From: Eubacteriales bacterium
GTDB taxonomy: Bacteria; Bacillota; Clostridia; Oscillospirales; CAG-272
Length of the DNA: 64,000 nucleotides
Direction: 5' to 3'
Assembly: GCA_045634385.1 (NCBI GenBank)
Contig: JAZRAE010000093.1
Span: 5,086 to 69,085, forward strand
Under the pieces are notes generated by a model that saw only the letters and a program-made list of their open reading frames with translations, made no database searches and was not told the DNA's origin. Position 1 is the stretch's first letter. Each line of letters opens with the position of its first letter. Positions 15,538-47,030 of the stretch are shown here, piece after piece. The position numbers and the translations under genes are program-made.

Positions 15538-16073
15538 TAAGTTTTATCCGTTTTGATTTTTTTGCTTCAATCTATGGCAAAATACCCCAATACTCCACCA
15601 TACATTTTGCCTACATTATATATAATTAACCTAACTCCAACCTTAAGAATTTTGACTCGATATTGCCTTGAACTTAATTTTTTTGATTTTTACTTTAAAT
15701 AATGCCTTAGCACGTAAATTTTCGGTTGGCTTTTTTGTGCATTTTAACTATCGTATTATTATAAGGAAGGCAACTCGTGTGCCCAATCCACCCGGTTTTG
15801 TATAACACACAGACGTTTTATGTCAAATAACACCGCATAAAAAGAGGAGCCGTCTCATTAAGAATTCAAGATAAGCAAAAGAAAAACGAGCAAACCAGAT
15901 GGGCGTACCCTAAAGGACGTTTTTTGAAATTTAGAAATTTAATAGGATATATTACCTACCGACAGAAAAAGGACGAAGAATTGCTAAAATTCCTCATCCT
16001 TTTTTCTTGACAAGCATCGCATTTGTTCGGACAAATGCTGATTGGGCTAAGCCAAAACCCTTATAACGACAGA

Positions 16074-16116
16074 AGAGATAACAAATCGGTTTATAGCCGA
16101 AATGTTATCTCTTTTT
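16074..16116 (+). terminator. orphan plus-strand rho-independent terminator-like hairpin
   Basis: AGAGATAACA-(19 nt with inner TCGG/CCGA stem)-TGTTATCTCT followed by TTTTT. There is no annotated plus-strand gene upstream. Confidence 0.45.
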
Positions 16117-16122
16117 CTATTG

Positions 16123-16325
16123 GTGAAGTTTTTGCTGCCGCAAAAGTGAAGTTGCTATGCAGTGAAGTACGTGCTATCGCACGAGTGAAGTCAAGTTTGC
16201 CCACTTTGCCGTAGGCAAAACTTCACTATCCGTAGGATAACTTCACTATCCGTAGAATAACTTCACTATCCGTAGGATAACTTCACTTACGAAGTATACT
16301 TCACTTGCCCATAAGGGCAAACTTA
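16123..16325. repeat. inverted word array: 4x GTGAAGT then 5x ACTTCAC, each word separated by a mini-palindrome; includes a 20-bp tandem repeat x3
   Basis: GTGAAGT at 16123, 16146, 16162, 16185. ACTTCAC at 16220, 16240, 16260, 16280, 16298. Unit CTTCACTATCCGTAGGATAA repeats at 16221/16241/16261. Confidence 0.9.
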
Positions 16326-16361
16326 GTTATGCGTGTTCTCCGTTTAAAGCTTATATTATTT

Positions 16362-16400
16362 ACGGTAGGAGCACGAAATTTCGTACCCCTACCGTTTTTG
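16362..16400 (+). terminator. plus-strand terminator-like hairpin downstream of the word array
   Basis: ACGGTAGG-AGCACGAAATTTCGTACC-CCTACCGT followed by TTTTT. Confidence 0.5.
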
Positions 16401-16503
16401 TTCGGTTGCGCTTAAATGCGACAGCCCCTTAAAGAATTAAGAGTTCAATATTGTTTTAAAAATGAATGTTGTAATAAATCGATCTTACAAAAGCCTTGTC
16501 ACA

Positions 16504-19287
16504 TTACAATTCTTCACCGCAAACGCACACCTCGGACAAGCCAAAGAGCTTTCTGATAAAGTTGATTATAGCTGTCAGAATTCTCTGTAGTCCCGATTCA
16601 ACCTCACACTTGCTGTGATCCTTCTCGTTTTCTTCGGGCGTTTTGTCCGTGTCAGGAGTATTGTCTTCGCCGGGAGTGTTGTCTTCTCCGGAATCAACCG
16701 CAGGTAGTTTTTCACCCTCGGTCATATCGCATCTCTCGCAAGTCTTGGGATTCTCATATGTTGCATCCAACCAATAATGTCCGAGTGCGCTCAGGGTATC
16801 ACCCGTGTAGCTGTCACCACAGCGTGTGCACGTGTAGGTGGTAAATCCGTCTTTGGTACAAGTGGGGTATGTAAGAACTGAGGTGTATCTGTGCTTACAA
16901 CCTTCCTCTGAGGGCAATTTTTCCCCCTCTGTTAAGCCGCATCTCTCACAAGTCTTAGGAGACTCATAGGTTGCCTCTGCCCAATCATGTCCGTATGAAG
17001 AAAGGATTGTCTGTGCAATGATTACCTCGCCGCAATCCGAGCAATACTTGCCCTCCGTAAGACCGGTTGTGGTACAGGTGGGAGCAACAGCCTTATCGAC
17101 GGTAGTATTTGTGTGCTGACACAGAGTTTCCTCTGTCGCTTCAACGTATACGGTTATATCATATGCACGGCACTGAGCTGACAGCTTTGTAAAGGTAAGT
17201 GAATCAACGGGTTTATCAAAAACAATGGTAATTACATTGCCGTTGTTCGTCGCTGTCGCACCCGTAGGTACGTTCATCCATCCGCTGATATGTTTTGATT
17301 CAAGTCCAACACAATTGATCTCGATCTTAGTCATACCGGGGTAAGCAATGGTAACGTCTGATCCGGCATAGAATCTCGCGGGGTTAGAATAATCAGCTAC
17401 ATCTACATTAGAGCTTGCCTTTTTATTGGTCACGGTAATGCCGTTTTGTGCCCAAACCTGTAGGGATGTGCTAAATTCCGTGCGGTTTTTCTTATCAGCA
17501 AAGCTTATAGTCGCCTTTGTATCAGCAACCTTTGCAGCGCCGCAAGAGGTACATACGTTGTTCACGTAATTGTGTCCGCTTGCCGCAACCTTACCGCCTA
17601 CGTAACTGTATGAACAAAGCGTACAAGTATAGGTGGTAAATCCTTCCTTTGTACAAGTAGGTTTAGTTACAACCGAGCTGTAGCTGTGCTGACAAGTAGT
17701 GGGAGTATCGCCGCCGGGATTGTCAGAGCCACCTGGGTTATCACTGCCCGAATTGTCACCATCCTCACTAAAGGTGTAAAGACGGGCAACATAATCGGTG
17801 TCCTTATACTTCGAATTAAGAAGAGTACCGAAGTTCACATATGAGCCGTAGTTACCTATATAGCAAACTTCACTTCCGACAGTAGTCTTAAAGGTGTATT
17901 TAGCAGAATCCCAAGTATACACGGATGTAGCACTCGAACTATAAGTGAAATTGTAATGAGTTCCGCTCTGTACAAGGTTTATATACTGTTTTTGTCCACT
18001 ACTATTTACAAAATACAGGCGGTATCCATTGGTAGCACTTTCAACATATACATCAACGCCATTACTGTATGCTGTATCTGAAGCACCGTAATACTGATTT
18101 TGTGTGCTCATCGTACCGCTGAAGTAATACTCCGCGCCCTTGGCTGTAGAGTAGAAGCCGAGCTTGTACGCCACGCCTGTTTCGAACTGTGTAACGTACG
18201 TGGGCTTCTGAGGTTCTTCCGGCTCAGTAATGCCGCAACGGGTACAAGTGCCATCAACGTAGCTATGGCCCTTTTCGGAAGTAACGTTAGTCTTATAACT
18301 GTAGCCGCATCCTGCGGTCTGACAAATGTAGACAGTGTAGCCCTTTTCTGTACAGGTAGCCGCTATTACTGTACCCGCACCAAAATTATTGTGACCGCAA
18401 TCGCCGTCACCCTCGCCCGAGGGGGTGATCATATCTTCGGGAATTTCCTCACCGAAGAGAATAAAAGCAAGCTCGGGATAGTCTACAAACACGTTACGTG
18501 TGCCTGTAATGGATTCAACAGAGTCATTTCTGCCAAGCTCCCAAGTGTCAACGGGATCTGCTTCCATCCACTCGAGCAAGACCTCAACACTCTCCATTAC
18601 ACCGCTTGAGCCCCATGCGTAGTTCTTATTGCCCCAACGTACGTAAACGTAGAGGAAAATACGTGCCACGTCACCACGAAGGTCGTATTGACCGCCCGAC
18701 TCCTTGTTGGGATTGTAGTATCCGGAGCTCTTGCCGTAAGCGGTATTGCCACGGGATGAATTCTCACTGACAGAGGTAGGACGAAGCATCATTATATCAT
18801 CTTCATCACTACCGCCGAGGCCCTTACTGTTAGGCCAAGTATGCTCACGGTTCCAGCCGCCGTCCCAGGAAGGACCAATCTGCTTGCCGGAATAGAAAGA
18901 AGATATCTTTCCGCCGCTGTTCTGACAGTCGGTGTATCTGAAAAGTTCTTTTGTTGCGTTATAGCTGGTTGTATATGACTGTGCATCAGTCATCAATTCC
19001 TTCAGCTCACGATACAACTCACTGCTCGGAGCATCGGATTTACCCGTACCTCCTTGATATGATGAAAGTATATCGTACGAAGTGTTGTTATCTTCATAGA
19101 ATGATTCCGCATTCGGAGATAAAAACGTTGCGACCTCACCGCGCGTACCCCAGTTGTATATGTATTTCCCATCGTACACATACGAAACCTCGGCAGCACT
19201 TACTCTAAGGCCGATTGCAGAGGTCAAGGATATGACCGTAACAAATACCAAGAGCAACGCTAAACTGCGTTTCATAAATTTACTCAT
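16504..19287 (-). CDS. secreted endonuclease I-family nuclease with beta-rich domains and four Cys-rich modules
   Basis: 927 aa. Signal peptide ...LTSAIGLRVSA/AE. WNREHTWPNSKG...DDIMMLRPTSVSENSSRGN matches the Endonuclease_1 (EndA/NucM) motif. CTxxGxTTYTCxxC...GHxY...CxxCG occurs four times. Confidence 0.75.
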   Translation of the reverse strand: MSKFMKRSLALLLVFVTVISLTSAIGLRVSAAEVSYVYDGKYIYNWGTRGEVATFLSPNAESFYEDNNTSYDILSSYQGGTGKSDAPSSELYRELKELMTDAQSYTTSYNATKELFRYTDCQNSGGKISSFYSGKQIGPSWDGGWNREHTWPNSKGLGGSDEDDIMMLRPTSVSENSSRGNTAYGKSSGYYNPNKESGGQYDLRGDVARIFLYVYVRWGNKNYAWGSSGVMESVEVLLEWMEADPVDTWELGRNDSVESITGTRNVFVDYPELAFILFGEEIPEDMITPSGEGDGDCGHNNFGAGTVIAATCTEKGYTVYICQTAGCGYSYKTNVTSEKGHSYVDGTCTRCGITEPEEPQKPTYVTQFETGVAYKLGFYSTAKGAEYYFSGTMSTQNQYYGASDTAYSNGVDVYVESATNGYRLYFVNSSGQKQYINLVQSGTHYNFTYSSSATSVYTWDSAKYTFKTTVGSEVCYIGNYGSYVNFGTLLNSKYKDTDYVARLYTFSEDGDNSGSDNPGGSDNPGGDTPTTCQHSYSSVVTKPTCTKEGFTTYTCTLCSYSYVGGKVAASGHNYVNNVCTSCGAAKVADTKATISFADKKNRTEFSTSLQVWAQNGITVTNKKASSNVDVADYSNPARFYAGSDVTIAYPGMTKIEINCVGLESKHISGWMNVPTGATATNNGNVITIVFDKPVDSLTFTKLSAQCRAYDITVYVEATEETLCQHTNTTVDKAVAPTCTTTGLTEGKYCSDCGEVIIAQTILSSYGHDWAEATYESPKTCERCGLTEGEKLPSEEGCKHRYTSVLTYPTCTKDGFTTYTCTRCGDSYTGDTLSALGHYWLDATYENPKTCERCDMTEGEKLPAVDSGEDNTPGEDNTPDTDKTPEENEKDHSKCEVESGLQRILTAIINFIRKLFGLSEVCVCGEEL

Positions 19288-31774: not shown

Positions 31775-31862
31775 AAACCTGTCCCGTGACTGACGGATCT
31801 TCGCGGATATAACCGCGGTGCCACGGAGACTTACATATTTAATGCCGACCGTCTGGGCGCAC
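31775..31862 (+). promoter_or_regulatory. ZTP (pfl-motif) riboswitch aptamer
   Basis: CCCGUGACUGACGG...CGCGG-auauaa-CCGCG...CCACGG, a linker, then CCGACCGUCUGGGCGC. This matches the conserved GUGACUGGCG ... CCGCCUGGGC cores. Sits upstream of purE. Confidence 0.8.
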
Positions 31863-31900
31863 TTCCTTTTCCTTGGGTAAGTGCGCCTTTTTGTATTTTT
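31856..31900 (+). terminator. riboswitch expression-platform terminator
   Basis: GGCGCACTT-(14 nt)-AAGTGCGCC followed by TTTTTGTATTTTTT. The 5' arm overlaps the conserved CUGGGCGC of the aptamer. Confidence 0.8.
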
Positions 31901-31957: not shown

Positions 31958-32449
31958 ATGAAAAAAGTTGGAATCGTTATGGGAAGCGCAAGTGATCTGC
32001 CCGTAGTAAAAAAGGCAATCGATATGCTCACCTCATTGGACATTCCGTATGAAGTACACGTTTACTCCGCGCACAGAACCCCAAATGAGGCGAGCGATTT
32101 TTCGTCAAACGCCAAGGAACGCGGTTTCGGCGTGCTTATAGCGGCGGCGGGAATGGCAGCGCACCTTGCAGGTGTCGTAGCATCCAAAACCACTCTGCCA
32201 GTTATCGGTATCCCCTGTAAGTCGGCAAATCTCGACGGACTTGATGCTCTTTTGGCAACGGTGCAGATGCCTACCGGAATCCCCGTAGCTACCGTAGCTA
32301 TCGACGGTGCGGCTAACGCGGCACTTCTCGCAGCGGAGATACTCGCTCTTGGCGACGATGCTCTTGCAAAAAAGCTTGAGGACAAGCGCCGCCGCGATAC
32401 CGAAGCAGTTCTTGAAAAAAACAAAGAGATAGAATCACAGTTCAACTAA
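31958..32449 (+). CDS. purE: 5-(carboxyamino)imidazole ribonucleotide mutase
   Basis: 163 aa. [28 protein letters not shown]. Confidence 0.92.
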
Positions 32450-45152: not shown

Positions 45153-46154
45153 ATGAATTCCAATATAAGACCCGAAAATATGACACGCATCACAACCAAG
45201 GCTCTTGCAGACGCTTTTATCAACGAACAGGTAAAGCTCATCAAAGAACAGGTAGGCGACAAAAAGGTTCTCCTTGCCCTCTCCGGCGGTGTTGACAGCT
45301 CTGTTGTTGCCGCCCTTCTTATCAAGGCTATCGGCAAACAGCTTGTGTCCGTACACGTTAATCACGGACTTATGCGCAAGGGCGAAAGCGAGCAGGTAAT
45401 TGAAATATTCGAAAAGGGACTTAATGCCAATCTCGTATATGTTGATGCAAGCGAGAGATTCTTAAATCTTCTTGCAGGAGTCAGCGACCCCGAGAAAAAG
45501 CGAAAGATCATCGGTGCAGAGTTTATCAACGTTTTCGCCGAAGAAGCATCCAAGCTTGAGGGCATCTCATTCCTCGCTCAAGGCACTATATATCCCGACA
45601 TTCTCGAGAGCATCAAGCAGGCAGAGGGCAAAAAGGCGGTTAAGTCACACCACAATGTCGGCGGACTTCCCGAGGATCTTCAGTTCGAGCTCGTCGAGCC
45701 CCTTAAGCTCTTGTTCAAGGATGAGGTAAGAGTAGTGGGTGAGGCTCTCGGCCTACCTCACGCTATGGTTTACCGTCAGCCCTTCCCGGGTCCGGGTCTC
45801 GGTGTAAGATGCCTCGGTGCAATCACCAAGGATAGACTCGAAGCACTCCGTGAAGCAGATGCAATACTCCGCGAGGAATTTGACAAATGCGGTCTTTCAG
45901 AAACCGTATGGCAATACTTCATAGCCATCCCCGACATCAAGAGCGTCGGCGTTAAGGACGAAAGCCGCTACGAGGGTTGGCCCGCAATCATACGCGCAGT
46001 AAACACATCCGATGCTATGAGTGCAACAATCGAGGAAATCCCCTACCCCGTGCTGCATAAAATCACCGAGAGGATCACAAACGAAGTCGAGGGTATCAAT
46101 AGAGTTCTCTATGATTTGACTCCTAAACCTACCGGCACGATCGAGTGGGAATAA
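45153..46154 (+). CDS. guaA: GMP synthase ATP-pyrophosphatase/dimerisation part only (no GATase domain)
   Basis: 333 aa. LSGGVDSSV, KSHHNVGGLP, FPGPGLGVR, C-terminal KPTGTIEWE. An in-frame TGA at 45135-45137 excludes an N-terminal glutaminase domain. Confidence 0.9.
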   Translation: MNSNIRPENMTRITTKALADAFINEQVKLIKEQVGDKKVLLALSGGVDSSVVAALLIKAIGKQLVSVHVNHGLMRKGESEQVIEIFEKGLNANLVYVDASERFLNLLAGVSDPEKKRKIIGAEFINVFAEEASKLEGISFLAQGTIYPDILESIKQAEGKKAVKSHHNVGGLPEDLQFELVEPLKLLFKDEVRVVGEALGLPHAMVYRQPFPGPGLGVRCLGAITKDRLEALREADAILREEFDKCGLSETVWQYFIAIPDIKSVGVKDESRYEGWPAIIRAVNTSDAMSATIEEIPYPVLHKITERITNEVEGINRVLYDLTPKPTGTIEWE

Positions 46155-46181
46155 AATTCAACTGGATTTTCGGTCATCATA

Positions 46182-46724
46182 ATGGAAAAGCGTATAATAT
46201 TAAGTGCGCTTCTTCTCTGTTTTATTTTTCTATTATCGACATGCAACAAAGGAGATACAATGAAATATACATTTGAATCTTTGCAAGATGAAAACTTAAT
46301 GGGTGGCAGCTCGTATTTTATGGATTTCGGAGAAATGGAATCGCAAGAAGATGCCGCAATAGCAGAAGGAAAGCTGCTTTCCGCATTCGGTCAGCCGGAA
46401 TACACGAGTGAAAATTATGAAAACTCTTTTAATTATATTATTCGTGCTACCGCAGACAACGGAGAAAGTGTCATATTGACCGTTTACGGTATGGGGGTTG
46501 TTCATATAGGTGCTGAACAACAGAATGATTTTGCGCAAAAGGCTGCATCTGCTCTTATAGAATACGTAAATGCTTTTACTCCCGCAGATTACAGCCGCAC
46601 TGTTTATTACTTGGATTTTGATATGCAAATTGATATTCAGGTAAAAGGTGGCAAGGCTACAATCAGTCAATCTCAAATATCCCAAGAAAAAGCAAACGAA
46701 TTATTTGATAAGTTCTATAAGTAA
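46182..46724 (+). CDS. hypothetical probable lipoprotein
   Basis: 180 aa. Hydrophobic leader ending LLSTC (atypical lipobox). Confidence 0.45.
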   Translation: MEKRIILSALLLCFIFLLSTCNKGDTMKYTFESLQDENLMGGSSYFMDFGEMESQEDAAIAEGKLLSAFGQPEYTSENYENSFNYIIRATADNGESVILTVYGMGVVHIGAEQQNDFAQKAASALIEYVNAFTPADYSRTVYYLDFDMQIDIQVKGGKATISQSQISQEKANELFDKFYK

Positions 46725-46862
46725 TTTGTTGATACCATTTTGATACCGTTTTTGCAGAGACTCCATAGACGAAGCGGAAAAAGGCGGTAAAATTCCCCGA
46801 AAAACCGCGCGGAAAGACCTCAATTCACGGGTATAATGCTAATTTAAGCGAGTGGGAATAAG

Positions 46863-47030
46863 GCACTTGCTCGCAAGTGCAATTAAATCCACCTGACGGT
46901 GGAATAAATCTGCTTCGCAGATGAAGTCCTCGCAAAGCTCGGATGAAGTCGCCTCGGCGATAAGTGGATTTAATCCCAACCGAAAACGCAAGTTTTCGAC
47001 TTCATCCTAAAACCCGTTTTAGGACTTCAT
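46863..47030. repeat. nested-palindrome structured element built on (G)ATGAAGTC / GACTTCAT(C) words
   Basis: ATGAAGTCC 46921 pairs with GGACTTCAT 47022. GGATGAAGTCG 46941 pairs with CGACTTCATCC 46997. TTAAATCCAC 46883 pairs with GTGGATTTAA 46965. At least six mini-palindromes as well. Confidence 0.85.

Follow-up and report, generated by a model that had tools for sequence, protein, structure and literature searches.

The array described here occupies positions 16123-16325 of the window, i.e., the whole 64-kb stretch of DNA that was analyzed, and lies between two protein-coding genes that are both encoded on the minus strand. It is located downstream of an endonuclease-I-like gene (16504-19287, minus strand), whose 927-aa product contains an Endonuclease I domain (PF04231); its C-terminal part is made of repeated modules that match many large proteins in related genomes. 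The earliest good minus-strand terminator past the array is found at ~15965-16010. At a distance from this locus, a ZMP/ZTP riboswitch (RF01750, 41.7 bits vs. a threshold of 39) is present at 31776-31865 on the plus strand, upstream of a run of plus-strand genes that starts at 31958. The array belongs to a repeated zone of ~15860-16430 that has a mosaic composition: the array itself and the two blocks that surround it, modules A and C, also occur separately. The features of this zone are the following:

16011-16122, plus strand: module A, repeated as a block of its own and containing two hairpins, a small one (GCATTTG..CAAATGC) and a long one, followed by a T-run
16123-16191, plus strand: left arm, four GTGAAGT words with three flush mini-hairpins between them (loops TGCC, TAT and TATC)
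16192-16219, plus strand: center, with AAGTTTGCCC (16193-16202) and then the central hairpin TTTGCC-gta-GGCAAA (16205-16219)
16220-16304, minus strand: right arm, five words that read ACTTCAC on the plus strand and GTGAAGT on the minus strand
16305-16324, plus strand: terminal hairpin TTGCCC-ataa-GGGCAA
16336-16430, plus strand: module C, likewise repeated on its own, in which a hairpin (16362-16395) precedes TTTTTG
16255-16329, minus strand: match to Rfam RF01706 (Gut-1 RNA), 51.9 bits vs. a gathering score of 50, E = 2e-7
16183-16248, minus strand: second, weak Gut-1 match, 18.5 bits, below threshold

The original prediction, which was made from the sequence alone, placed GTGAAGT words at 16123, 16146, 16162 and 16185 and ACTTCAC words at 16220, 16240, 16260, 16280 and 16298, with a small palindrome in almost every spacer. 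Locating the words in the window sequence bore out all nine coordinates, and every palindrome that had been listed is present. These words are concentrated at the array, as four of the seven GTGAAGT and five of the ten ACTTCAC of the entire window fall within 203 bp. The right arm contains three 20-bp tandem units and the hairpin ACTT-acg-AAGT. The three units had been described as a strict repeat, which is correct as to their number and not as to their identity: the middle unit, with the sequence ...CCGTAGAATAA, carries one G-to-A change by which one plus-strand base pair is lost. While the window copy has three such units, all 21 other homologous copies have one, which indicates that the expansion is specific to the window and points to a recent slippage event. 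The arms can also be closed at long range. The sequence AAGTTTGCCC at 16193-16202 is complementary to GGGCAAACTT at 16315-16324, and the 3' half of the terminal hairpin together with ACTT (16315-16324) can thus pair alternatively with 16193-16202, which closes the right arm; a 10-bp complementarity between the start and the center of an arm is present in other subfamilies too. Both strands fold far better than shuffled sequences, as had been proposed for verification (z-scores of -6.4 and -7.1 for the plus and minus strand, respectively; none of 200 shuffles folds as well). The array is therefore real, and chance does not explain it. A coding function was considered and discarded, since the 63-aa ORF at 16023-16214 merely overlaps the repeat.

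Module A, the long hairpin of which is formed by AGAGATAACA (16074-16083) and TGTTATCTCT (16103-16112), adjoins arrays built on different heptamers and is also found alone in many genomes (query 12-125). Module C looks like a plus-strand terminator, and copies of it with 95-96% identity are present on four contigs of the window's genome (C84, C33, C24 and C72). The only syntenic relative found for the first array (G058) has no array at this locus and is too diverged to define the boundaries of the element. Read on the minus strand, the window array has CAATAGAAAAAGAGATAACA (16074-16122) behind its last heptamer, which resembles the ribosome-binding region, CAAACACCAAAAAGGAGAACAATA, located behind the last heptamer and upstream of the start codon in the homologue of locus L195; this likeness may mean that module A is the remnant of a former gene start of the type described below, or it may be due to chance.

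According to the original prediction, the array matches no known class, a statement tied to the absence of a match to any known repeat or non-coding RNA family. This did not hold: the Rfam search that had been suggested returned RF01706, and because the right arm passes the curated Gut-1 threshold the array is not unclassifiable. No family besides Gut-1 was found in the Rfam scan of the first array. Gut-1 was described from human-gut metagenome reads only as a run of hairpins separated by GUGAAAU, and was considered by its authors a probable non-coding RNA to which no function was assigned (Weinberg et al. 2010, PMC2864571). However, Gut-1 covers this family only in part, as its description includes neither the two-armed build, nor the many heptamer subfamilies, nor the association with PF05635 genes; a literature search on Gut-1, PF05635 and S23p likewise found no description of such arrays.

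The genome of the window (G000) is a 2.38-Mb metagenome-assembled genome that is 85% complete, and its relatives, named Acutalibacteraceae, Ca. Fimenecus or Clostridia, come from animal and human guts. The family as a whole is one of uncultured gut Clostridia. The window's genome contains 51 Gut-1-like matches. Such matches occur in 28 of 41 related genomes, with up to 39 per genome, and in only two of 150 other genomes sampled across the phylum. Homologues of the GTGAAGT element are present in 63 of the 81 genomes of the genus, and three copies with 84-94% identity are found in the window's genome. The genome-wide search for word arrays revealed the multicopy family of intergenic repeats that had been offered as one possible explanation: the same 7-mer recurs three or more times in a row at hairpin spacing in 117 chains vs. 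five in a Markov shuffle, and the words are clustered and not over-represented genome-wide. Each arm is built from one heptamer that alternates with 4-7-bp Watson-Crick mini-hairpins of free sequence, and contains three (29 arms), four (66), five (17) or six (4) words. Subfamilies differ in the heptamer, with RTGAWRT as consensus (e.g., GTGAAGT, ATGAAATC, TGAATTG, ATGATGT, GTGATAT, ATGAAGC, GTTATAT and GCGATAT), and the window array shows the features of the family, having an RTGAWRT-type heptamer, mini-hairpins and two opposed arms. In every subfamily the heptamers of the two arms stay complementary. Because the arms face each other in this way, two single-strand folds are possible. In one, 7-bp helices and four-way junctions build a ladder; in the other, the 10-bp long-range stem closes an arm and the heptamers are exposed. 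That the heptamer arm always comes first was considered as a rule and rejected, as the opposite order is found in L149, L172 and L202. Many copies are located at contig ends, and no target-site duplications were seen at copy boundaries. On contig C39 of the window's genome (9446-11202), two ATGATGT arrays lie in series behind a tRNA gene and separate a 104-aa ORF, a PF05635 gene and a 136-aa ORF, an arrangement that resembles small cassettes stacked one behind the other, every one of them with an array in front.

Comparison of homologous copies indicates that the structure of the array is under selection. In an alignment of 22 copies from about 20 species (A1), the heptamers, including those of the left arm, and the terminal hairpin are invariant, whereas the stems change in a compensatory manner. 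Stem columns show UA 16/CG 6, UA 15/CG 5/GC 2 and UA 13/CG 8, the last being the pair of the central hairpin (alignment columns 110/121), and the left-arm stems show compensatory changes as well, so that the covariation analysis proposed with the original prediction gave a positive outcome. Whole hairpins are also exchanged between homologous copies. Of 1052 stem pairs, 98% are Watson-Crick. G-T (G-U) pairs and A-C mismatches are similarly rare (nine vs. six in 197 hairpins; ~7 vs. 6 in the alignment), and their asymmetry was discarded as a guide to the RNA strand because the non-Watson-Crick pairs are too few and too balanced. The loops have a clear polarity. On the strand that carries the heptamer complement, 113 of 139 distinct hairpins are closed by 5'C-G3', 37 of 80 triloops are GNA and none is TNC, and 30 of 49 tetraloops are GNNA and none is TNNC; among the GNNA loops GNRA is not preferred (12 GNRA vs. 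18 GNYA). Such a strong strand polarity implies selection on a folded strand. The combination C(GNA)G/C(GNNA)G is the rule of the extraordinarily stable DNA mini-hairpins GCGNAGC/GCGNNAGC, which are known at single-stranded DNA origins and in phage N4 promoters (PMC13037366, PMC3201870). Many one-armed copies begin just 3' of a stop codon and end at a terminator, and their orientation relative to the upstream gene (15 to 9) is not decisive. The array may thus act as RNA or as folded single-stranded DNA; the pairing and loop statistics speak for DNA, or else for a role of both strands.

The context of the arrays connects the family to IVP, i.e., the PF05635, 23S-rRNA-IVS/Avd-like protein. A two-armed array is located directly upstream of three of the four PF05635 genes in the window's genome, and among the 53 IVP loci read in the genus and its relatives ~33 have hairpin arrays directly upstream, while in ~15 the heptamers stand in tandem, without hairpins, beside the ribosome-binding site. 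A separate deep PF05635 clade without upstream hairpins (L067-L075, L081, L083, L088, L205, L209 and L210) has bare tandem heptamers (e.g., TTGAAAA, TGCAAAA and AATGAAT) between the promoter and the ribosome-binding site. Two contexts of the arrays in front of IVP genes are recurrent. In one of them a tRNA gene is followed by a terminator, the array and a -35 box that abuts the last word; in the other the stop codon of the upstream gene is followed by the array, which abuts the ribosome-binding site. Since the array thus lies upstream of the -35 box in tRNA-linked loci and next to the ribosome-binding site in others, one simple regulatory geometry does not fit all loci. GTGAAGT arrays are found in front of IVP genes in L195, L206 and L078, and those of L195 and L206 share head and center sequences with the minus strand of the window array.

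The heptamer also follows the protein. In a maximum-likelihood tree of 51 IVPs, the 22 heptamer classes need 24 changes, with a minimum of 21 and a shuffled mean of 41.7; none of 200 shuffles is as low, and related words occur in related clades. Heptamer and protein are physically linked, however, and this agreement can reflect plain co-inheritance. The GTGAAGT-linked IVPs fall into two separate clades. An IVP gene is present in 18 of 19 genomes with Gut-1 matches and absent from three of five without them (counts 18/1/2/3; Fisher p = 0.018, uncorrected for kinship). IVP matches PDB 2rld, a five-chain entry, and has Avd as a homologue (PMC10053308). There are ~10 arrays for every IVP gene, and at least 11 heptamer classes stand against four IVP genes, none of them linked to GTGAAGT, in the window's genome (85% complete). 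No PF05635 gene is present in the window, and the 1.5 kb around each of 30 retrieved GTGAAGT copies contain no IVP gene either. Because the window arrays have IVP-linked homologues in other species and no such gene here, both are orphans.

The second of these arrays, which had been predicted to follow the same grammar, is real and belongs to the same family:

46863-47030, plus strand: second array, with the degenerate words AATTAAATC and AATAAATC, then ATGAAGTC twice (46921 and 46943) and GACTTCAT twice (46998 and 47023)

It has a weak Gut-1 match of 30.6 bits, under the threshold of 50, and its IVP-linked homologues are those of L201 (G065) and L135. An ATGAAATC array directly follows the guaA stop codon in L124, L135 and L162, and a GTTATGA array with an IVP gene is located after guaA in L149, L172 and L196, so that two different words, each paired with its own IVP clade, have been found at the guaA site. 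The ancestral place of the second array is right behind the guaA stop codon. The site is variable. In L135 it contains the array and an IVP gene, in L124 the same array followed by another gene, and in L145, where the flanking genes are those of L124, a plain terminator in place of the array. Altogether, five of 80 retrieved guaA loci from relatives have an array and 75 do not. In the window, a 707-bp segment (46142-46861) is inserted between guaA and the second array. A 13-bp direct repeat (CGAGTGGGAATAA) borders this segment at 46142-46154 and 46849-46861; the segment is single-copy in the window's genome and carries a 180-aa lipoprotein-like ORF (46182-46724) without Pfam match.

The explanation that we favor, tentatively and at slightly less than an even chance, is that the window array is a gene-less, two-armed copy of a modular multicopy heptamer/mini-hairpin repeat that serves as a cis platform for IVP. 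The family appears to be strongly linked to Avd-like proteins, and in its complete form the element stands right in front of a small PF05635 gene encoding an Avd-like, pentameric four-helix bundle protein. While the build of the arrays, their copy number, the covariation of their stems and their linkage to IVP genes are observed directly, we infer that the array binds protein, which is the leading reading and one that the original prediction had listed among its possibilities. In the proposed model, the heptamers would be the element recognized by the IVP protein and the hairpins would function as structural spacers. The array would then be the cis-acting nucleic-acid platform through which IVP autoregulates its own gene, and IVP might perhaps also act in trans at orphan copies. 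The window copy would have originated when the repeat was duplicated or recombined into the stretch behind the endonuclease-I-like gene, and would have gained two extra 20-bp units recently by slippage.

Several other readings need to be weighed against the IVP platform. The array could function as a structured RNA independently of IVP, transcribed from the minus strand in a ~540-nt 3' region of the endonuclease-I-like mRNA, where it could, for instance, block 3' exonucleases or act as a sponge for proteins. This reading, which we consider rather unlikely, is in line with the match to Gut-1, rated a likely non-coding RNA by its authors, with the compensatory stem changes and with the many one-armed copies that run from stop codon to terminator. 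It also agrees with the minus-strand orientation of both flanking genes and the position of the first good minus-strand terminator past the array (~15965-16010). Moreover, several IVP loci have the array between an upstream gene and the ribosome-binding site and lack a promoter there, so that the array must be part of an mRNA. However, G-U pairs are not favored over A-C mismatches, which is unusual for an RNA under selection, and the loops are not those expected: on the word-sense strand used by Rfam they are UNC/UNNC, which are not known as stabilizing, and on the other strand the GNNA loops do not have the purine at position 3 expected of GNRA tetraloops. The one-armed copies, moreover, show only a 15 to 9 split in orientation relative to the upstream gene. 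The same observations on pairing and loops bear on a reading in which the folded element is DNA, single-stranded or supercoiled, with hairpins that constitute recognition sites (e.g., for priming, recombination or cassette exchange). With their nearly exclusive Watson-Crick pairs, G-T being about as frequent as A-C, and their predominant C-G closure of GNA/GNNA loops, the hairpins conform to the DNA mini-hairpin rule, the tRNA-linked arrays are located upstream of the -35 box, and arrays mark changes in gene content, as exemplified by the 707-bp insertion next to the second array and by gain and loss after guaA. Yet 4-7-bp stems would not extrude from relaxed duplex DNA, GNA/GNNA loops are acceptable in RNA too, and the hairpin-less heptamer tandems inside the 5' UTRs of other IVP genes argue for RNA. 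As for a candidate enzyme, neither a reverse transcriptase (PF00078) nor a Y1 transposase was found in G000 (85% complete). We regard this reading in its general form as highly improbable. Hardly more probable is a specific version in which the arrays are not RNAs, and the rows of C(GNA)G/C(GNNA)G hairpins in each arm are folded-DNA sites whose heptamer is read by the cognate Avd-like pentamer; these sites would form a reverse transcriptase-independent system at the DNA level by which small gene cassettes are marked for, or driven into, exchange behind tRNA, guaA and rlmD genes of gut Clostridia.

A further reading is a selfish or neutral origin, i.e., a dispersed palindromic repeat of the REP/BIME, BOX or MITE-like type without host function. 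Such a repeat would be spread by some enzyme or by recombination between shared heptamers, and IVP genes would merely share its insertion hot spots at the 3' ends of tRNA, guaA and rlmD genes. The high copy number, the separate occurrence of module A, array and module C, the variable number of units (three vs. one) and the many copies at contig ends are consistent with this, as are the presence or absence of the array at one and the same locus (five of 80 after guaA, with a plain terminator in L145) and the syntenic G058 locus that has no array. Against it, no Y1 transposase/RAYT (PF01797) was found in G000 (85% complete) and target-site duplications were not seen at the copy boundaries examined. 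In addition, the linker is conserved and the palindrome is not, which is the reverse of REP, pairing is kept by compensatory change across species, the loops have strong strand polarity, and the heptamer follows the IVP clade and not the locus, as shown by the two words found at the guaA site. We consider a selfish or neutral repeat unlikely.

In all, the element is a real member of a partly known family that is richer than its Rfam entry. If IVP pentamers read heptamer arrays, as the platform model supposes, two orphans would explain each other: Gut-1, which has been without function since 2010, and PF05635/IVP, which is widespread and for which a role is known only for Avd in retroelements. 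This would represent a new recognition system between a ring protein and a repeated motif, one in which a single genome contains many specificities. In common gut bacteria the arrays account for a visible part of the intergenic DNA, and according to the loop statistics a motif catalogued as an RNA might in fact work in the form of folded DNA. What the window itself provides is two orphan copies, whose value is that of an example and of comparative material and not of a working system.

Among the known systems that come close to the window array is Gut-1 (RF01706, PMC2864571), also a tandem of small hairpins joined by a GUGAAAU-like heptamer in gut bacteria; the two are further connected by a canonical GTGAAAT array that precedes an IVP gene in L207. 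While Gut-1 is described with three hairpins, one strand and no partner, the window element is built on GTGAAGT, its two arms are opposed and their words complementary, it can be closed by a long-range stem and has modules attached to it, and it is part of a set of at least 12 heptamer subfamilies linked to PF05635 genes. The original prediction had set the array apart from REP/BIME, CRISPR, MITEs with terminal inverted repeats and riboswitches, and these exclusions stand. With the RAYT-mobilized REP/BIME/REPIN elements of Proteobacteria the arrays share abundant extragenic palindromic units often located just 3' of genes, alternating orientation, variable number, and gain and loss between relatives. 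In contrast to REP, which has a conserved palindrome and a Y1 transposase, the arrays have hairpins of free sequence and a conserved linker; the assignment to this class was rejected because the 139 hairpin sequences are distinct, the linker heptamer is the conserved part and no RAYT was found in the window's genome (85% complete). CRISPR was discarded as well, its repeats being 23-50 bp with unique non-palindromic spacers, whereas here the repeats are 7 bp and the spacers are palindromes of 9-25 bp. A protein of the same family is encoded by the S23p/PF05635 ORF of 23S rRNA intervening sequences (e.g., in Coxiella; PMC4990558), which is likewise tied to a self-complementary RNA/DNA element that resembles a selfish insertion. 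These sequences lie inside 23S rRNA helices and are excised by RNase III, whereas the arrays are found behind various genes (tRNA, guaA, rlmD-like and others) and are organized by a repeated heptamer; moreover, the window array is located between protein-coding genes and the window has no rRNA match, so that this class was rejected. The partner protein also provides a link to diversity-generating retroelements, as its homologue Avd is a basic, nucleic acid-binding barrel of five subunits (PDB 4DWL; PMC10053308). Such a retroelement was rejected here because no reverse transcriptase was found in G000 (85% complete) and neither a template nor a variable repeat was seen. The DNA mini-hairpins GCGNAGC/GCGNNAGC (PMC13037366) follow the same loop and closing-pair rule, which in the arrays applies to one strand of each arm. 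They occur singly and their polymerase or primase partners are known, while here three to six hairpins form an array with a repeated linker. In systems of the TRAP-trp leader type, a symmetric oligomer reads a short motif that is repeated once per subunit, with the spacers looped out and often near the ribosome-binding site. The proteins are unrelated and the arrays have a 7-nt motif with hairpin spacers, but the proposed working principle of a ring protein reading a repeated motif would be shared.
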